Source: Lama glama
Lineage: Eukaryota
Direction of reading: 5' to 3'
Assembly (NCBI GenBank): GCA_028534125.1
Contig: CM052830.1
Coordinates: forward strand, 24,366,138-24,430,000
Length of the DNA: 63,863 nt
Of this stretch, positions 18,097 through 63,260 are shown in pieces. Position 1 is the first letter of the stretch, and every line of letters begins with the position of its first letter. The position numbers and the translations under genes are program-made. The notes under the pieces were generated by a model that did no database searches, had not been told where the DNA came from, and worked only from the letters and a program-made list of their open reading frames with translations.

Positions 18097-18203
18097 TGTG
18101 TGCGTGCATGTGTGTGCGCACATGCGTGTGTGTATGTACGTGTGTGCATGTGTGTGTACGTGCGTGTGTGCGTGCGTGCATGTGTGTGTGCGTGTGCGTG
18201 TGT
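18097..18203. repeat. Alternating purine-pyrimidine (TG/CG/CA) microsatellite, 107 bp
   Basis: Directly visible, essentially unbroken YR alternation. Confidence 0.9.
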
Positions 18204-24506: not shown

Positions 24507-26988
24507 CACATGCAAACTGTAGCTTTTTCGCCCAAATGCCCACAAGGCCGAACGATTCGGCCAGCCTGCACTCTGAGGCTCTCTGCAATGCCGTTTGACC
24601 CATAATGTGCTTTCTGCCTGGCCACAGGGGATTGTTGGCAGGCCTTCTGGAGGGTTAAATAAATGATGGGCTTCTCCGTGGTCACAGGAAACCATCTCCA
24701 GGTCAATGATACCGCGAAGCAGGGCTTTACGGAGCTTGCTAAGATGAAAACATCAGCTCCCACTAACCACATCCCCTCGTTTCTGAAACTTTGAAGCTTC
24801 ATTGCTGCAAAAAGGAGCACAATCAAGCCTCGATAAAATGTTAATAGCGGGCACTGCGCTCCGCAGCCAGCCTGCAATTAGCCGTTGCTACGCTACGGGC
24901 AGAGCCCAATCACGGTAATGAGGCAAACAAAGGGAGGGGATTCATCAGGGCTCTGAGGCCAGCGCGCAGCCGGCTCCACTCCGAGCGCTGGTTTCCGAGA
25001 GGCGGCAGCTGTGCCCCTGGGAAATCTCAGTCCTCCGCGAGGTCCACAAGGTCGCCCGGCTGGGCGGGTCGGGGACGGGCGGGTGTGATCTTCCCAGTAA
25101 GGAAGGCTGGTGTGCGGCATCATCCCTCCCACCACCGTGAGGACGCGCGCATGTGAAAACCGGTGCTGCCCCGACTTCGTGCAGGAACCCATGCGAGAGC
25201 GCGCGCCGCCCTCCAGGACTCTGCTCTCCCACGTGTGCTCCCGGGAGCGGTCGCGTCCACTCCATCTGGGAGCTTGTAAGAAATGCAGGTTCTCGGGCCC
25301 ACCTGGCCCTCCTGCGTCACAGCTGGATTTTAACAAGATACCCAGCTGGTCCGTGTGCACACGGAAGCCGAGACGCCCTGCTCTGGGAGACCTCACCCTA
25401 GTGAGGACAGCAGTTGTTATGACAATGACAGTGACCCTCGCTTCTGCCGGGTTCTGTGTGAGGCATTCTACACGAGACTCTCCCTCCATCCTCACCATCA
25501 CTCCAGGGACCTCTCCCCATTACGCACGTGAAGAAATGGAGGATCCGAGAAGTTAAAAAACTTGTCCACGTCCACTGGACTAGTAGTGGTAGGAAACAGA
25601 AACGTACTTTCAGGGTTTCCTGATGGCAAAGCCTGGTTCTTAGCCCCTGGTCTGGAACGCGACCTATCACACGCAGGTGAAGGGTGATTAAAAGTGACCG
25701 CCGTTCAGATCAGTGCGCGGTAACAGGTCGCAATGGGCTTAAAAAGGAGGACAGTTTGAAGGCTGATAAAGGGGCAGTGATCCTCTTTGGTCGGAGATCA
25801 GGGAAGAAGGAAGTAGCATTTGCGCTGGAATTTGAATGAGAAGTAGGATTTACACACAAAAGAAAAAAAAATGATGGGAAGGGCGTTCCTGGCAGCCGGA
25901 TCAGCACAGCAAAGTGCAGTGATCTGAAGACGTGAAGAGTGTCTCCCCAGCCAGCGAGTGGAGCACTCAGGCCTGGTGCGTGTGTGAGCGGGAGCTGGGT
26001 GACGGACAGCCCTGAAGGTCGAGGGAAGGGTCTGAACTTCATTAGGAGGTGATGAGGATTCACGGGGGGTGTCTGACTGCGGTGTGGGGCGGTCAGGCCA
26101 AGCTCCAGAGAGAGCTGTCTTGGAGATTATGGTCTGCACAGAGAAGACCGGAGGGCCTGAGAGCCCCAAGGCACCGCGGGGTCTGAGTCAGGGAGGTCCT
26201 GGGGGAGGGTCCAGGGCACTGGGAAGAGTCAGAGCCTCCGATGGCGGGCTCCCACCCGGGTGACCAGGAGAACACTGAGACAGAGGGAGGGGTGGTTTGG
26301 GGGAAAATGGCACAGTCTGAGATAGAGGACATCTGACATGGTTCACAGCTTCCCATCAGCAACACCAATGTTCATTCAATAGCTGTTGATCCAGAGGGAC
26401 AGCGAAGTCAGTAAGGCCCAGAAGCGAGCCCGCGGCAGCCCACAGTGACGGGTACCCCGTTCAGGGCCCGAGCTCAGTGCTCCGCAGGAAGGGTCCTTCT
26501 GACCCGACCTGTCACGTCTTCACTCAAAACCCAGGACATGTCTTACAATCACCCGGGAGCTTCAGAAACACCAGGACTCACCTCCTGAAAGATGTGTGCA
26601 CGGGCGGCAGTGAGTGACGGTCCAGGCTCAGAAGGCGAGGGTCTCGGCTGAGCCTGGGTGGACCTTCCAGTTCTGTCGATGCCCTTTAGCCAGACCACCA
26701 GGAGGACACCCAGTGAAACCAGGCAAATGCACTCCTCACTGTGGAGGCGGAGAGCGCCCCCCGGGGGGCGTGGGGGTCAGGGGCGTGTTCTGCCCACAAG
26801 GAGGTCTCAGAAGGAACCCATCACAACACTGGAGCCTTGCTGGGAGCCCTGGGGGAGGGTCTCAGGAAGTGGGGGTCGCTCTGGATCCGGTGTCTTCAGA
26901 AAGCGGGGGCACTTGCATTTCAGTCAATCCCACTTATTTCGGGGGAGACGAGCATGAAGACAAAGTTGAAACTGGTAAAGAAGTAGCA

Positions 26989-53437: not shown

Positions 53438-53617
53438 GTGCGTGTGCGTGCGTGCGTACGTGTGTGCACACGTGTCTGTGTGTGCTCATGTGCATGCGTG
53501 TATGTGTGCACACGTCTGTGTGTTCATGGGCGTGCGTGTGTTCGTGTGCGTGTGCATGCGTGCATGTGTGCAGGGGCAGGGATTGGGCAGGTCGGGGTGG
53601 TGTGTGCATGTGTGTGC
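53438..53617. repeat. Interrupted (TG/CG)n purine-pyrimidine repeat
   Basis: Directly visible. Confidence 0.9.
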
Positions 53618-54247
53618 TGGGGTGAGGGGCTGGCAGCTAGAGAAACTCTGACCTTGGAAGCGAGGTCTCCTGACCTCACGGTTCTGCCGAGTCTGGGCCT
53701 GGAGGCGCTGCCTGAGCGGGTCTTCACCGGCCCCTCCTTGATTCACTGCCACTCAGGAACCAGTCGGCTTCCCGGCAAAACAAAAGCTCCCGAGATCGCT
53801 GATTCCGCAGCGCCCCCCCGTGGTGCCTGGAGTCTGTCTGGCGCGAAAGCCTTCAGACGCTCTTCAGACACGCGTGGTCGCCAGTCCCACGTGGGGTCCT
53901 TCGTGAATTTTACTAGGTTCCTCCTCAGGCTCCCACGCCCCTCGGGAGAACTCCAGCTGCATTTCGCAGATCAGCAGCGGGGGGGGGACCAGAACCCGGG
54001 AGAGCCCATGTTCCTCCCTCCCCCTGCGCGTCCCGAGCCCAGCCTAACCCAACAGGGCGAGGGGACAAGGCAGCTAAGGCAGAATCCTCCAGACACACCA
54101 CCGCCCAAGGGCAGAAGCCCGTCATGTGTCCACCACGTGCAGGCCAGCCCGGGACCCTCCCGGGCCCTGGAGGGGACACAGAGGGGACACAGCGTGACGA
54201 GAAAGTGGGAGCCCAGCCTGGGAGAGGCAGGGGCAAGGGCTGGGCCC

Positions 54248-54419
54248 CTCTAAGTGGCTGCTGCGACGGCCACGGGAGCTGGAGCAGGCAAACTGAGCAG
54301 CAGCAGCAGCACCTCGCCGGCTGGGGAGGCCGAGCCGCGGACCCAGCCAACGCCGGCCCTCGTGGTGCGCAGCAGCTCCCAAAACTGGAAGGGGCTGGCC
54401 CCGGACTGAGCCCGGAGCG
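54248..54419 (-). pseudogene. NOX5: NOX5 exon 7 remnant (TM4); frameshift and donor GT>GG
   Basis: ALRAQSGASPFQFWELLRTTRAGVGWVRGSASPAGEVLLLLL, then 2 leftover nt, then FACSSSRGRRSSHLE, followed by gg instead of gt. Confidence 0.9.
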
Positions 54420-54598
54420 CTGCAGACAAGCACGAGACAAACTGCTGTCACTCCTCTGGCCCGTTGGGGCTCCCACCCCTCCCCGTCCAAAGTCCGACAC
54501 GCCCAGCGGGCAGGCGGACACACAGGGGCAGGCTAACCAGGTGGCTTGTGGGAAGCCCACGTCCCACCACACCCACACTCCAGCCCGAGGCTACTCAC

Positions 54599-54723
54599 CG
54601 AAATTCACAACGTGGGCCACAGTGTGCACAGGACTGGTGGAACTGGACGTTCTGGTCCAGGGGCAGGGCCTCAGCCAGCCACGTGGCCCGCAGCCTCGTG
54701 GGGCAGCGCCTGAGCACGAGCAC
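54599..54723 (-). pseudogene. NOX5: NOX5 exon 6 remnant (TM3); internal frameshifting deletion
   Basis: cag|VLVLRRCPTRLRATWLAEALPLDQNVQFHQ-[deletion]-S-/-VHTVAHVVNF|gtgagt. Confidence 0.92.
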
Positions 54724-55980
54724 CTGGCGGCAGAGCGGGAGAGAGCCGGCCTGCCTGCTCTGCGCCCCGCCCTTGCCCGGAGCCGGCCGTGCCCCCGGAC
54801 GGCCGCCACCACCTCCCGGCCCCCAGCCCGTGCTGCTCCCCCAGGGCCACCGCTGGGGTCTGCAGAGTGGGGCCTCCGGGTCTGGGGAGGGGAGAGCGCG
54901 TGTTACGGGCTATAATACGTCTGCTCCTATTACTTTTGTCTGAACACACGAGAAGCATGTAAGCCCTTCCTGGTGGTCAGTGTCTGTGTTGACGTGGGCC
55001 CTCGCGTAGTCGTCCGTCAGACGGGCAGAGTCGCCTGTGGTTCCTGAGACGTCCCGGGCGGTGGCGGTGAGGGCTGCCCACTTGCTCGTTTGCTTGAATG
55101 CATTTCTGCACGCCGCGGTACGTGGACGTGCAGACCACAGTATCCGGTTTTCACTGAACTGAACTAACCACCCCCAGGAAGGACAGGTAGCTGAAAAGGC
55201 TCCCTTCTGAGACAGTGCAGGTTGAAAGGGCTGCTAACAACGCAGCGAGTCACGCGGCTCCCGCTGCCAGCGTGCAGTCTCTGCAGCCAGTCCTGCGGCT
55301 AAAATGGGGCCCACTCAGATGAGAGGCTGACACTGTCAAGGAGAGTATCTGAACTAGAGACGAACACCCGACCGTGAGGGTGACCCTTGCCTCCCGGCTG
55401 TCTCGTGCCGCAAACCCCTGGCGAAGGACAGCAGGGCGCACGGCGATAAATAAGCACGTGCTGGGTAACTGGCGGGGAGGGTGTTTTCTGTTTGTCCGTG
55501 TTTTGTTTTAGTTGTGATAGTTCCATTTGGGTCGTTGTGTAGTTGTTCTGCTGTACTTATCATCAAATACACTTGGAGCCCTCGGTCTCTGGTCCCGAGG
55601 ACCACAGTCTGGCTCCTCAGTCTGGCAGTCAAGGTCCCTTGAAGTGTTCTCTCTCCAGCTGGCACCCTGAACGGGAGCCCGCCCCGCCTCCTCTGGGCCC
55701 ACCTAGGTTACTGTGAGGATTGAATGGAAAGTGCTCAGCACCCTGGCTGGTACACAGTAAGTACACAAAAGTGTCAACTATGTTCCTTACCTGCTGCGTG
55801 ACTACGAACAACTCACTGACCCTCTCTGAGCCTTAATCTCCACCACTGAGTACTGGCCCAGCTGATTTGTAAGGTGCCATCCTACTCCAGCGCTGCAGGT
55901 GTCCACAGGTGGGTCATTTTGTCTAAGAGGAGCCACACCAGCCCCGCTGCCCATGTTCCCAGGCGCCCATGGAGCCCTAC

Positions 55981-56218
55981 CACAATGAAGCTGCAGTCAA
56001 AGTTGAAGCACTGGCCGCAGCCCTTGGCCACCATGACCCTGGCACCGAGGGCCTGGTGCGCACTAGCTGCCAGTGCCAAGAGCAGCAAGGGGAGGCCCGC
56101 GTGGACGACCAGGCAGAGCAGGTGGTGGCTGCAGTGGTTGTGCCAGTAGGCGGAGGTCAGTGGGCGAGGGCGGCGCTGGTGCGGCCTGGCAGTGGGAGGC
56201 GTCAGCCAGTGGGCAGCA
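55981..56218 (-). pseudogene. NOX5: NOX5 exon 5 (TM1-TM2); open frame, intact AG/GT
   Basis: AAHWLTPPTARPHQRRPRPLTSAYWHNHCSHHLLCL...ARVMVAKGCGQCFNFDCSFIV|gtaggg. Confidence 0.93.
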
Positions 56219-57076
56219 CTGGGGGAGAGGGCTCCACTCAGAGGGATGTGGTGGGAGGGACCACAGGAGTCTGAACCTGGAGACCCCACTCCCTCTGTAG
56301 CCCACTAACCCTCTGGAGCCTTGTGGCAAGCAAGACAGCTTCCTTTTATACCAGGAAACAGAGAGGTCAAGTGACTTGCTTATAGTCACACAGCAAAGTG
56401 GGCCTGGAATGAATCCCTGGTCTGTCTGATGCCACTTTCACAGCCATTTTTATTACCTCTCTTTACTTCCCAACTGAAAAAAAAGGGGAGGCAACTGAAA
56501 AGGATGGAAGGGCCTGAGACGCATGGTAACTCACAAGAAAGTCAATACGCAAGAAGAACGAACTACTGAGGTGGCGCCACTCAGAGCTTGGAGTCAGTCA
56601 GGTTTGGGTCTGTTACACCCTTTTTATATTATTTTCTCTGCAGCTCTTATCAGGTTTGTGCTTACCTAGCTTATGTGTCTGCTTGTTGGTACAGATTACT
56701 TCTCTCCACCTGGAATGCAGCCCAGCAGCCTCCGCCATCCCTGAGAGCAGGGCTCGGCCCGCGAGCGGCTGGCTGACCGGCTGAGCAAATAAACTGCCTT
56801 GGCCAATGCCTTGTGTGAGCCTAGGCTCATTGCTTCAGGTGGAGTAACTTGAACACCCTTTTGTAACTGTAATTTCCTCGCACTGGTGTATTTGTAAAAA
56901 TGCCCGGCACATAGTAGGTGCTTAATATTGTGAGCCGATTCTAAAGAGACATGCAGAAAATGGAACCTTTGTCCCCAAGAGAAGGTGGGCGAGGAGGAGC
57001 CGACCGGAGGGAGTGGGCCACTCTGCAGCTGGAGCGTAACAGCCAACCCGCAGTGCCCTGCACAGACGGGAGGTAG

Positions 57077-57287
57077 CCGACGGTCAGGCTCTCCATGACC
57101 CCGGGGAAGAACTGCAGCTCGGCTCGCAGCTCCCCGAAGGTGATGGCGCCGCTGCCGTCCCGGTGGGCCGACTGGAGGAGCGCCAGCGTCAGCTGGTCCA
57201 GCCTCTCTGCGGGCATCGAGACGGCGCTCTCCCGCAGGCACGACTGCAGCACGGTGCGCAGCTCGTCCGCGTCGATGGAGCCGCTGC
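57077..57287 (-). pseudogene. NOX5: NOX5 exon 4 (EF-hands 3-4); open frame, donor GT>CT
   Basis: GSGSIDADELRTVLQSCLRESAVSMPAERLDQLTLALLQSAHRDGSGAITFGELRAELQFFPGVMESLTV, followed by ctacct where gt is expected. Confidence 0.93.
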
Positions 57288-59388
57288 CTGCTCCAAGTGA
57301 GAGGAAGCCGAGTGGGAGCCCCCGACCCCACTCTGTCCTTGCAGATCCCCCTGCTTTGCACAACCACTGCGTCGAGCAGTGACCCCTTCCTGTCCGGTCA
57401 CCTCCAGCTTTCTGCCGACCAACTGTCTTCAGGAGTATAGCCCAGGCAACGGAAGAGCACGTGGCACCTTCTGCTCACAAACCTTCCATGGCTCCCTAGT
57501 GTTTGCTCAACAGAGGCGAACACCTCCTCAAGCATGGAGAACCTTTGGTTTCAGTGCAAGGCTTCCTCCGGCATCTCCAGCCTCCTCTCTAAGTACCACT
57601 CGACTTCCAAGACCATCCACTCAGAGTCCACAAGGAGCTGCGTGCCCGGAGCCCCGACCACCCAGAGGCGAACTGTGTGTGAGGCAGAGTGAGGAGGGGC
57701 TCCCTGCTGCTCCCCGGCTGGTAGCAGACTCTACTCACCCACGCGGCCCTGAGAGGCCACCGCCGGGCCCTCAGGTCCAGCCTGGTGGCCTTATGTGCGG
57801 GTGAGCGGCTGAGAGTGACGTGACCACACGACCGCGGACCCCCGTGTGGGCGGACTCCGCACTGCAGGTTCTGGCCGTGTCTGAATGAATCGCAGACGTG
57901 GACCCCCGGACACCGAAAGCCGACTCCAGGCTGTCATTTTACATGAGAGACCTGAGCATCCGCGAACTGCGGGACCCAGGGGCCTGGAACCAGCCTGAGC
58001 AGGAGGACTCGTGTCAGTGATCTCGGGGTGTCTGGGTGTGGACACACCTGGCACAGCAACACGCTTCTGCCCCCACCATGTGGCGGCGGCTCCGAGCCCC
58101 TTAGAGACTGCACGTTACTTTGCTCATCTCTAGAATGGGGCTGATCACCCCCCTTTTGCAGAATTGGCCCAAGGATAACAGGTGATTAATTATACAGCAC
58201 GTAAAGCAGCATCTGGAAGAAGGTGGTTGCATAGGGGCACAAAGTCTTATTGGTACTGTGACCGCCACCTGGGCCAAAGCCGAAGTCTGTCACCACAGCA
58301 CAAAGCGGAGCTAACGCTGCGCTCCCCGGCCATGCCTCCTGTCTTCTCCTAGTCGAGAGCCACCGGGCAATAGGTTTCTGCCACATCCAGAGCCCCAGCC
58401 CCTCCCTCTCGTCCATCCAGCCTTATTCTCTCCTGAGCCAGTTTCAGACCCAGTGTCCCATTCACAATCATTCTGGTGCACGCATTCTTATTCCTTACCC
58501 CTCTGTCCTTCTATTCTGCTGACCCTAAAAGTCCCTCATCCCCAGGTGCATCCAACTACCTGTCTTCCCCTCTCCTGCACCTGCTAAGTGCACACCGTGG
58601 ACAAAGAGCACCCAGGAGAGCAGGATGAGGCCGGTCCCAGCCACGGCGAGGCCTGTGAGGCCTGGCGAGCCCGAGTCAGGTGGGGATGAGAGCCAGAGGA
58701 ACCCAGGGCCAGAGGGGGCACAACTGCAGCCAGGCTGCGCTTCTCAGGCGCAAATCCAGCCCCGTGACTCCCCTGCTCAGCGGTCTTCAGTGGCTCCCCG
58801 CTGCTCACTGCCCTGAAGCTCCAGACATGGCCTCTGGGGCCCACACGGTCTGGCCTCACCGACCACCCCAGTCTTGCTGGGCGCCTCCTCCCCACCTCAG
58901 CTTCCCTTCCTTTGATGGCTTCAGGCCTTCAGAGACCCTCTAAGCCACAAAGTTGCCAAAGGTGTAAACACCAGGATGGTCACAGCAGTGTCACTTATAA
59001 TGCCAAAAATAAAGGAAGAGCGGGGAACAACGGAATTGTCCGTTTTGGAAACGGGGTTTGAGTGAATGGTGACGAGCCGCAGCCGACACCTGGAAAGGGG
59101 CAGCCACGCCGGGCGCGGTTCTGAGTGCGCAGAGGTCAGCGACGGCCCCTCCACCAGCCTCGTGAGAAGCTACTACTACGGTGACCATGCTTTTTATGTG
59201 ATGCGTGAAGAAATGAGGGACAGAGAAGTTAAGGAGCTTGCCCAGCGCCACGTGACTAATAACCCGAGGGGCTGAGGTGTGAACTGCGGTAACCCGGCCT
59301 CAGTCAGAGACGGCGACGGCCAGCCTGCGCTGCGTGGGACACCGGAGCACACCGGAGCAGGGACACGAAGCAGCCACCACGGTGCTGC

Positions 59389-60080
59389 TGCAACCATCCT
59401 GAGTCACCGCCTCACACCCACTGGGATGGCTGTTATCATAAAAATAAAACAACAAACCAGAAAGTAACCAGGGTTGGAGAAACCGGAAGCTCTGTGCATT
59501 GCTGGAGCGAACGTAAGACGGTGTGGCCGTTGTGGAAGGTGACAGGCCCTGCGAACAGAGGAGCCAGGAACTCCACTCTGGGGCACGTGCCCAAAGGGAC
59601 AGAAAGCACGGTCTTTTTGAAGAGGTATCTGTGCACCATGTTCACAGCAGCATGACTCACAGTAGCGAGAGGGGGAGGCAGCCCTCGTGTCCACCGACAG
59701 ACGGGTGGACAAGCAAATGCAGCATCACACACAACGGAGTCTTACTCGGTCTCAAAAACGGGTGAAACCCTGCCACACGGGGCAGCACGGGTGAGCCTTG
59801 AGGCTGCTGTGCTGAGTGAAGTCAGTCAGTTACACAAGGACAACCGTGAATAATTCCACTTACAGAAGGTACCGCGAGTCGTCAGGTTCTCAGCAACAGC
59901 AAGCAGAACAGTGGGGGCGGAGGAGGGAGGGGTGGGAAGCCGCTGCTCAGCTTGCAAAGCCAGGAAAGCTCTGGAGGTGGATGCTGGTGACGGTTGCCCA
60001 ACAATGTGAGTGTATGTAATGCACATAAAAACGGTTAAAGTGGTAGATTTAATACTACATATATTTTACTACAATTAAAA
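59389..60080 (+). mobile_element. L1MB-like 3' end inside NOX5 intron 3 (antisense)
   Basis: cacacccactgggatggct...tgttcacagcagca...tgtccaccgacagacgggtggac...gctgagtgaagtcagtcag...ttccactta...ttttactacaattaaaa. Confidence 0.85.
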
Positions 60081-60443
60081 TGGTCTAAAGTAACAGTCTT
60101 ACGTGCACACATGTTTATATTTAGTGGAAAGGGCAGTGCACACAGTGTGACACCTTTTTGTCTAAAAAAGTGTGTGGTGCACACGTGTGGTGGTCAGTTA
60201 GAAGGCGGTGTAGGAAACATGACGGGTGATTTTCGCTTTCTTCTTTAAACCATTCTGTATCGTCTAAAATGTTCACAGGGGGCTATTTTTATTATTAAAA
60301 ATCAACAAAACGCTTTCTTTTTTCAAACACAGGAAAGAACAAAGGAAAGTCCTGGCTTCCGGTGAGTTGAATCAAGGCCATTTGTCTCCTGGACAGAGTC
60401 CCACCTTCTCGCCAACAAAAGGGAGGCAGGGACCAGACAGAGA

Positions 60444-60598
60444 NNNNNNNNNNNNNNNNNNNNNNNNNNNNNNNNNNNNNNNNNNNNNNNNNNNNNNNNN
60501 NNNNNNNNNNNNNNNNNNNNNNNNNNNNNNNNNNNNNNNNNNNNNNNNNNNNNNNNNNNNNNNNNNNNNNNNNNNNNNNNNNNNNNNNNNNNNNNNNN
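60444..60598. other. Assembly gap (155 N)
   Basis: Run of N. Confidence 1.
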
Positions 60599-60663
60599 CA
60601 GCCACTGAGACGGGCCAAGTCCCTTGCCCTCCCAAGCCCCCCGAGCCCCACAAAGGGCCCCAC

Positions 60664-60804
60664 CATCCACGCCCTACACCTGGAAGAGGAATCCAGGTTT
60701 GCCCACAGGGCTGCCGTGGGTGAGCGCCCGCCGCGGCTCCTGGAGCAGATGGTGCCACTTCCATCCGAGTCACACAAGGCGAAGAATCTCTCAGTAAAGA
60801 AGGA
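60664..60804 (-). pseudogene. NOX5: NOX5 exon 3 remnant (EF-hand 2); frameshift plus nonsense codon
   Basis: cag|SFFTERFFALCDSDGSGTI-/-LQEPRRALTHGSPVGKPGFLFQV*GVD|gt. TAG at 60676-60674 replaces Tyr of FQVYD. Confidence 0.93.
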
Positions 60805-62312
60805 CTGCGCCGAGCAGAGGGGGAGACAGGCAAGTGTGGCCACAGGGCTGGGCTCTGGGTTCACTCACTGTGTGCGTGTGTCTGTGTGTGTGCACGCTGT
60901 GGGGTGGTGGGATTCAGGGAGCACCCAGGTGCCTGAACACAGGTGTGATCTACCCACAAGGCCACTCCAGGGCGCCGTGTCCACGGCCCTCCCGCCAGCC
61001 GGGGGCAAGTCTGGGCTCTAGCGAGAGGCCTGCTCAGGTCCCTGCAGCGAGGATGGCTGTGTCCGGGCCGTGGGCCCCTCTCCGGCCCTGGCGCCTGGTA
61101 GTCTGCACCGGCTCTCTGCCCCGTCAGCCTTGCCGTCCAGACCCCTGGTGGCCCCTTACGCAACAGGGAAAAGGGCTGGACAGAGGCCACCCCGGGTCCT
61201 GCCTGGTCCTTCCCGGGGTGGCCCCGTGGGGCAGTGAGCACAGGAAGGAGGGACAAGCGCAGGCCGCCGCAGGCCTGGGCCTCCCCTGCCCGGGTGTCCG
61301 GCGCCCTCCGTGTGGGCTGTTCCCAACGGCACGGCTCTCCGTTGCCAGTTCAGCCTCTCCACTCATCATTCATCCAACCATGTCTCGCGCAGACCCTGCC
61401 TGCCAGGCCTGGTGCTGGCGCTGGAAACGCAGGGTCTAGGACAGGCTGGGTCGTTGCTGCAGCCCGTCAGGCCCGACGCTCCCCTGGAGGCCGTGCTGAC
61501 CGACCCAGACAAAGTGTGAGTCCCAGGCACCACGCTCACCGTGGGCGTCAGCCCTGCCCTGGCCTCACTCTTGCGCCCTGGGTCGCTTGAGCAACGCGTT
61601 ATTACCCTCTGCCGACACGGATGGCCATTATCTGAGATATTGTACAGCCCCTGTCGGGCAGGTCTCCTTTTCCCTTCCCCGCATTGACCATGAAAGGAGG
61701 CAGGACATTTAGAGTTCCAAGCAACGTCCCTGGTGCCAGCAAGTGAGGGTCCCTCCCATCCAACAGGGGCAGGCAAATGCTCGCCGGCTGGTGCTTCTAA
61801 AGGACGCAGGCACCACCAGACGCCAGCCCAGGGACGCCTGCGGAGAGGCTGGCATCTGAGGCTCACCCTCCCGCCTCCCAGCTCACGTCCCCGCAGGCTG
61901 TGCTGGGAACGGGCAGAGGGTCTGGCACCGAGAAGGACTGGGGAGGGTGGGGCAGTGCAAACGGCCTCTAGTGGATACAAGCCGTGGGAACCTTGCTCTG
62001 TGGCAGGAGGTGCAGGTCAGCTCACCTCTGTCCCCGAGCTGGGTGGTGACTGCAAGGTCAATAGCATCTTAAGACTTGACAGGGCACGGTTTCCAGCCTC
62101 ACGCGTCTGAAGGCCCAGGAAGCCACGGCTACCGAGAGGGGCGGAAAAGCCCCGCGGCAGAGACAGAAACATCCTCCGGCCCTGCTCAGAAGTGGGGCCC
62201 CGGGGGCCGGGGAGCAACGTTTCCCTCCTGCACAGCACCTTGCCCTGCAAACCAGGCTGCTCGTCCTCCACGGAACGCGGACTCAGGGCCCCATCCCAGA
62301 GTGGGCTCTTGC

Positions 62313-62420
62313 CTCTTCCGCGTTCAGGGCTCTTCTGGACTCTTGCAGACCAGTCTCCCCGTCTCAAACTGGCGCGTCACCCACTGCAGCCACTTGGCAT
62401 CCTCCTTGGCACTCGCGGCG
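62313..62420 (-). pseudogene. NOX5: NOX5 exon 2 remnant (EF-hand 1); ATG>GCG and frameshifting deletion
   Basis: ccag|c gcc GCG agt gcc aag gag gat gcc aag tgg ctg cag tgg gtg acg cgc cag ttt = ASAKEDAKWLQWVTRQF, then a shifted DGETGLQESRRALNAEE|gcaag. It is missed by the ORF track. Confidence 0.9.
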
Positions 62421-63260
62421 CTGGGAGACAAAGGAGACAGGTGTGTGGGTCTGGGGTGGCCGAGGCTATGGGGCCTCACGATGGTCCCGGGGCCTCTGCC
62501 TTCCTCCAGCGAGGGCCTCGGGCCTCCCAGGGGGTTGAACCAGCTTCGGCGGTGGGAGCAGCGCCAAGTCGCCCTCTCTTCCTTCCAGCTGGCACGTTCT
62601 GGCCCAGGCTTAAATCTCTAGGCTCTGGAACGACGGGGCCCTGTGAGCTGGACCCCAGACTGGGAGCACGAGGTCAGAGAACGGTCCCCTCCGGGAGCGC
62701 TACTGACACGATGGCAGCGACCCTCCCACCTCACACGTGCACAGCTCTTCGCTGTTTTCCAACCCTTCCTGCTCACTGTTTCGCCTGGTCTGTTAGCAGG
62801 TGTAAGTTACTCAGCCGCTCTGAGCCCGTTTCTTCCCTCCGACGTCTCTCAGGGAGGAAGCAGGCTCAGAGCGGCTGAGTTACTTAGCTGGTCAGAGACA
62901 GAGGCAGACTCAGCGCCGAGGCCCGAGTTTCCTCCATCGTGCCCCAGTCTCCCCTCGGCCTGAGCACGTCGAGTCCAAGCCGCGTCAGGATGCGGACCTC
63001 CGGCTTGGCTCTCCGGCCCAGGGCTTGGTCCGCGACGTAGAGTCCGCCATCTGAAACCTCGCAGGTGGGCCGGCTGCCCTGCGATCGGAGCCGAGGTCAG
63101 GGGCAACACGGGGACAGCGCTTTCTGGGCATCAGGACCCAGCCAACCAAGACTGAGGCGATGAGTGAGGATCTACAGCCTCTTGTTCTGTTAATTTTCCT
63201 CTGGGAGGATGGCTTTTGTCTACAGCCCATGCGTTTAATGGAACCTTCAGTGATTTAGCT

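Follow-up and report, generated by a model that had tools for sequence, protein, structure and literature searches.

In a stretch of 63,863 nucleotides of the llama (Lama glama) genome (contig CM052830.1 of assembly GCA_028534125.1, positions 24,366,138 to 24,430,000; hereafter the window), the minus strand carries at 62420-54248 the broken 5' half of NOX5, the gene of a calcium-activated, superoxide-producing oxidase. We consider it very probable that this remnant is a dead, unprocessed unitary pseudogene, that selection on the gene ended on the camelid stem and that the 3' half was, most likely, deleted. A lineage-specific loss had been proposed in a preliminary description of this DNA, and the loss is real, but it appears to be family-wide and old, since gene models of Camelus share the decay. 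This locus cannot give rise to a protein that produces superoxide, because its frame meets a TGA after 31 codons, because three more frameshifts, a further stop codon and two dead splice donors follow, and because exons 8-16 are absent.

Exons 2-7, all six of them (we number exons 2-16 according to what we take to be the human NOX5 scheme), are collinear in the window, and every one has an AG acceptor. A profile of 23 mammalian NOX5 proteins matched exon 5 (E-value 1.5e-37), exon 4 (7.8e-34), exon 7 (2e-15), exon 6 (1.1e-10), exon 2 (1e-5) and exon 3 (2.2e-5), and scored at most 1.9 bits anywhere in the window outside the gene; these matches and the acceptors bear out the six ordered exons with introns that had been described. 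Human NOX5 was the sole PDB match of the exon 4 translation (E 3e-28). Five introns are kept, of 1508, 3376, about 858, 1257 and about 179 nt, so that the gene structure is unprocessed. With working mammalian NOX5 (human, PDB 6SZ5 and 8U85-87; hippo, P0123; pig, P0131; cattle, P0071) the remnant shares the order and phases of exons 2-7, the sequence coding for the EF-hands and the first transmembrane segment, the intron DNA on either side of exon 4 and the beginning of intron 7; unlike these genes, it is without an open frame, has lost EF-hand ligands and has no counterpart of residues 367-742 of the hippo protein.

Lesions were called from frameshift-aware alignment to rhinoceros and cattle NOX5, together with exon lengths. 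Exon 2 (62420-62313, 108 nt, which is 16 nt less than its cattle counterpart) shows a net loss of 16 nt near 62362, in EF-hand 1, and it is here, at 62326-62324, that the ancestral frame meets the TGA. Exon 3 (60804-60664, 141 nt) has a frameshift of -1 nt near 60747, an in-frame deletion of 9 nt near 60718 that is also present in the dromedary model, and a TAG at 60676-60674; a gap of 155 N in the assembly (60444-60598) falls within intron 3 and affects no exon. Exon 4 (57287-57077, 211 nt) and exon 5 (56218-55981, 238 nt) keep open frames, the latter with a 3-nt insertion and with acceptor and donor intact, and the exon 4 donor reads CT where GT is expected. Where models of other mammals read through this donor they have Arg after the last codon, mostly followed by Tyr or Cys, and the Gly-Tyr of the window fits a change from GT to CT. 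Exon 6 (54723-54599, 125 nt) has lost 29 nt near 54630, from the part of its helix that separates the two histidine codons, and exon 7 (54419-54248, 172 nt) has a 7-nt deletion near 54293 and a GG donor. The four frameshifts (here sized at -16, -1, -29 and -7 nt), the TAG and the two altered donors had all been noticed before, and each holds, the donors by the read-through comparison and by the homology of intron 7. No intact calcium-binding EF-hand was found: EF-hands 1 and 2 are struck by deletions, the first Asp of EF-hand 3 (exon 3) has become Gly, that of EF-hand 4 (exon 4) has become His, likewise in both camel models, and exon 4 falls below the Pfam cut-offs.

The DNA directly 3' of exon 7 (54247-54170, minus strand) is homologous to sequence that a chimpanzee model has gained by reading through into intron 7. 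This segment scored 14.4, against a maximum of 7.4 in random stretches of the window (0 of 300 reached 14.4); in plain tblastn it was not significant (E 2.7), and lengthening it from 25 to 50 codons did not raise the score. As this DNA represents the start of intron 7, the GG donor is a point change, with the break further downstream, and an origin of GG as a deletion junction was ruled out because the start of the intron persists beyond the exon.

Two further candidate lesions were rejected. For the GC donor of exon 2 an ancestral origin is probable, judging from the protein models, since an E-A-S read-through occurs in 6 of the 232 models with this junction. NOX5 intron 2 (donor at window 62312-62311) is apparently GC-AG across placental mammals (P0041, P0058, P0061, P0079, P0037, P0223), and it trips gene predictors, which yield the E-A-S read-through or a shortened exon. 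The start codon of the short isoform does read GCG at 62416-62414, as the preliminary description noted, but it was given too much weight there and is not disabling by itself, since Met is replaced by T, V or L in 22 of 156 full-length models (equids, squirrels, fruit bats and hare; the 156 include several isoforms per species).

The largest lesion, beyond those described earlier, is the absence of exons 8-16. The profile search did not find them in the 54 kb downstream of exon 7 (best score 1.9 bits), and the stretch in which they are expected, 331-54170, is free of gaps and holds no NOX5 coding remnant; gaps occur in the window at 190-330 and 60444-60598 only, 331-60443 being continuous. The missing part of the hippo protein includes the last portion of the transmembrane domain, the FAD domain (residues 418-550) and the NADPH domain (559-730), in Pfam terms the end of Ferric_reduct, FAD_binding_8 and NAD_binding_6, and no trace of this dehydrogenase portion was seen in the window. 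We presume that the haem groups of NOX5 are held by four histidines in two helices; the first pair is split by the 29-nt deletion of exon 6 and the second (H372 and H385 in hippo) belongs to the missing exon 8. When fragments of the missing part were simulated with 30% random change, a threshold of at least 5 bits recovered 63/72 fragments of 25 aa, 66/69 of 35 aa and 69/69 of 45 aa. The best of 207 C-terminal tblastn queries against the window reached E 0.047, Pfam gave no match for the 150 scanned of the 198 open frames of at least 100 aa, Rfam gave none in 1-55900, and there were no self-matches at E 1e-10 that would indicate internal duplication.

Deletion of the 3' half seems to us the probable course and its relocation unlikely. 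One form of the latter is an inversion or translocation that split the gene in intron 7 and left exons 8-16, themselves broken, more than 54 kb away, which would still amount to gene loss. We give it a small chance: our view extends to 54 kb downstream, the first part of intron 7 survives and its junction could not be located, but two camel gene models run into the same downstream DNA as the window, so that any rearrangement would predate the split of camels and llamas, and no camelid C-terminal fragment turned up, although no search was aimed at one.

These two models, P0053 from dromedary (309 aa, annotated as partial NOX5) and P0190 from wild camel (273 aa, spanning exons 4-5 and then non-coding pieces), link the remnant to the wider family, and the fact that they match the window even in non-coding DNA confirms the camelid origin suggested for it. 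The dromedary model has in common with the window the non-Met codon at the start position and the 9-nt deletion of exon 3; it is without the deletions of 1 and 29 nt, and a deletion of 15 nt in its exon 6 is private to it. Its splice out of exon 3 falls just 5' of the TAG, and in both models exon 4 is left ahead of the dead donor, a pattern of splicing from which we infer that the TAG and the dead exon 4 donor are common to camels. At the end of exon 4 the window differs from both models, which agree with each other; together with the five organism labels of the matching sequencing runs, this suggests a South American camelid. The end of P0053 is non-coding DNA matching 50650-50578 of the window, and pieces of P0190 are collinear with it at 26456, 22040, 4045 and 1126-966; these collinear tails indicate that in camels, too, the remnant is followed by this exon-free DNA, and neither model contains the 3' half of NOX5. 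As the decay is in part common to the window and to Camelus, it probably began before the camel-llama split, which would make it family-wide and old and not specific to one species.

The occurrence of identical changes in the independent dromedary and wild-camel assemblies leaves hardly any room for an artefact of assembly or sequencing, for which the two small gaps in the window might be cited. Deletions of 7-29 nt are, moreover, atypical of base-calling errors, and in 15 DNA-type sequencing runs with five organism labels, one of which may be the window's own source, 0.89-0.99 of the words sampled from 54000-62600 are present. The corresponding share is 0.05-0.17 in four RNA runs and in a further run guessed to be RNA, which is no evidence on transcription. 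Two metagenome scans for orthologous DNA that might place the break gave no mammalian DNA: the first found none, and of the 80 loci from the second, 0 were similar to the DNA of the window.

At the level of the protein, camelid NOX5 appears to have evolved under relaxed selection. In a column test of 211 gap-free alignment columns with 24 intact orthologues (16 window codons and all gap or stop columns excluded), 115 columns were invariant; 13 of these are changed in the window and 13 in dromedary, nine of them identically, whereas each intact orthologue, in turn left out, changes 0-5. The wild-camel model covers five of the nine shared changes and agrees in all five. Counted over all window columns, 26/157 are changed in the window, as against 0-7 in intact orthologues. 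On a fixed tree of 22 taxa we obtained, in substitutions per site, 0.173 for the camelid stem, 0.055 and 0.064 for the two crown branches and 0.10 for the distance of pig and hippo from the artiodactyl root; from root to tip, camelids have changed about 2.0 times as much as other artiodactyls (bootstrap 1.3-3.5), and the stem is 2.9 times as long as the post-split branch (bootstrap 1.6-6.0). The split of camels and llamas has been placed at about 16 million years ago (Mya), and the artiodactyl root is quoted at 41-65 Mya (PMC5577142). With the split at about 16 Mya and an assumed root of 63 million years, protein data and one camel model put the loss before 29 Mya in 97.5% of 100 bootstrap replicates, half of which reach the root. 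A point date was rejected, as it ranges with the calibration from 40 Mya to beyond the root, one calibration giving an impossible value; the loss may be placed roughly at 30 Mya or earlier, a figure that depends strongly on calibration.

That the genome has no working copy at another locus is indicated only indirectly, and in this respect the remnant differs from the unitary pseudogenes treated in PMC2864566, with which it shares being unprocessed, disabled and orthologous to a working gene of related species. Among the best 120 of 402 NOX5 matches of 542-2000 aa, which include pig, hippo, cattle, deer, sheep and goat and extend to birds, there is no camelid protein, and the only camelids among 18 matches of 169-541 aa are P0053 and P0190. 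The 106 members listed for ten protein clusters, the larger of which are listed in part, include no camelid except P0190. It is therefore quite improbable, in our view, that the window holds a decayed partial 5' segmental duplicate of a NOX5 that is intact elsewhere in camelid genomes. Such a duplicate might well consist of exons 2-7 only, an NCBI-based listing counts NOX5 as present in four camelids (PMC10458973), and a NOX5 duplication has been reported in the humpback whale (PMC6657726); however, three protein searches gave the two broken camelid models and no long one (for long proteins, among the best 120 of 402), the dromedary annotation gives the name NOX5 to the broken locus, and between artiodactyl families the intact NOX5 proteins share 79-88% identity, so that an intact camelid protein should form a visible cluster of its own.

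Several points nevertheless weigh against a unitary, family-wide loss. The camel evidence consists of predicted proteins, not DNA, and the sharing of the TAG, the donor and the 3' loss is deduced from their splicing. The protein searches scored 8000 candidates each and included no query from the C-terminal half. No flanking gene (SPESP1, GLCE) lies within the window, where we would presume SPESP1/ANP32A upstream and GLCE downstream of NOX5, and collinearity was seen with Camelus only. NOX5 is listed as present in Camelus bactrianus, C. dromedarius, C. ferus and alpaca by Nazari et al. (2023, PMC10458973), and Turakhia et al. (2020, PMC7498332), who screened alpaca and Bactrian camel, give NOX5 loss for rodents only. 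According to its description, the former study combined NCBI orthologue listings with neighbourhood checks, both of which a remnant bearing the gene's name could satisfy, and it is probably because six exons remain recognisable that work based on listings scored camelids as present.

We regard it as very improbable that the 5' remnant has been retained in another function, be it that of a regulatory transcript linked to SPESP1 or that of a short peptide with EF-hands. The open frames of exons 4 and 5 would suit such a role, as would whale annotations that join NOX5 5' exons to a transcript named SPESP1 isoform X2; yet the frame of exon 2 stops after 31 codons, the exon 4 donor is dead, EF-hands 3 and 4 are without their first ligand, and residues that are otherwise invariant change freely, exons 4 and 5 included.

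We favour instead a simple history of decay, in which selection on NOX5 would have ended on the camelid stem, well before camels and llamas split. A single deletion, which began more than about 75 nt into intron 7, most likely removed the catalytic 3' half, and the remaining 5' half would have decayed neutrally and separately in the two tribes, acquiring -16, -1, -29 and +3 nt in the llama relatives and -15 nt in dromedary. The likeliest cause would be, as in rodents, a relaxation of selection on a gene that could be dispensed with, there being no evidence for adaptive loss, and we prefer it because NOX5 has been lost repeatedly and, as PMC10458973 presents the matter, with no known loss-of-function phenotype. 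Calcium-linked oxidant signalling may have been left to DUOX1/2, other NOX enzymes and mitochondria; compensation by DUOX has been proposed for rodents (PMC9524095), and for camelids it is no more than a lead.

Loss of NOX5 is known from other mammals. The gene, described as the most dispensable NOX, was scored absent in 37 of 164 mammals, namely 27 of 31 rodents, two pikas, two bats, two afrotherians and four single species including the narwhal (PMC10458973), and its loss in hystricomorph rodents and in mouse and rat is recorded in the supplement of PMC7498332. The absence from mouse and rat mentioned in the preliminary description is thus correct but understates the extent of loss (PMC10458973). 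The gene and the outcome are the same in the camelid case, which differs in being an independent event, in Tylopoda, and in leaving a recognisable remnant of six exons. Literature searches, in which the top 15-40 entries of large result sets were considered, found no report of camelid NOX5 loss; NOX5 does not occur in the supplements of the loss screens PMC5865188, PMC6386725 and PMC10208646, and the supplement of the GISMO study of 462 mammals contains at least one NOX5 row, without species. The kind of event is known, and the camelids add a new lineage to it.

Whale NOX5 (P0100, P0172, P0173) also looks broken, with 8 of the 115 invariant columns changed. The gray whale models break off precisely at conserved Trp residues of exons 5 and 7, a Rice's whale model ends after exon 3, and no cetacean is found among the best 120 of the 402 long NOX5 proteins. 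At least eight other toothed whales were scored NOX5-present and, among those considered, the narwhal alone absent (PMC10458973), and camelids and whales alike are mostly scored present in that table. We incline to the view that even-toed ungulates lost NOX5 at least twice, at 30 Mya or earlier in the line leading to the camelids and, as another event, in whales, and that the gene persists in pig, hippo and ruminants. In RefSeq the truncated 5' exons of the whales (P0100, P0173) go under the name SPESP1 isoform X2, which shows how such remnants hide in annotation; this naming suggests an upstream exon or promoter common to SPESP1 and NOX5. In manatee and dugong the NOX5 models (P0069, P0097) carry the NCBI flag LOW QUALITY PROTEIN, possibly a further aquatic loss.

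The loss is unsurprising in kind, NOX5 being the NOX most often lost, and its physiological importance in camelids we infer from what is proposed for the gene elsewhere. Roles of NOX5 in sperm motility, vascular contraction and kidney injury are considered likely but unclear, and research on them has been hampered by the absence of the gene in mouse and rat (PMC6519284). If the loss is as we describe it, camels, llamas and alpacas would be fertile, large and accessible NOX5-null mammals, in which the need for NOX5 in sperm motility and vascular tone becomes testable outside rodents. A domestic family that lives and breeds without NOX5 would be a natural test of these roles and would correct the published table of presence, and its interest would be higher if the parallel loss in whales holds. 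Camelid data on oxidative stress or semen should, with due caution, not be taken as NOX5-dependent. Alpacas and llamas should also have no self-tolerance to NOX5 and may be suited to raising NOX5 nanobodies.

Beyond the gene, degenerate GT-rich tandem repeats occur at 18097-18203 and 53461-53572, the second about 0.7 kb past exon 7 and near the possible deletion junction. The stretch 331-760, which adjoins the gap at 190-330, is AT-rich (GC 0.39 in the first kb) and resembles what we take to be the reversed 3' end of a LINE-1 element. The window as a whole (1-63863) is GC-rich, mostly 50-68% per kb, and its observed/expected CpG ratio lies mostly at 0.35-0.8, unusually high for non-coding mammalian DNA.

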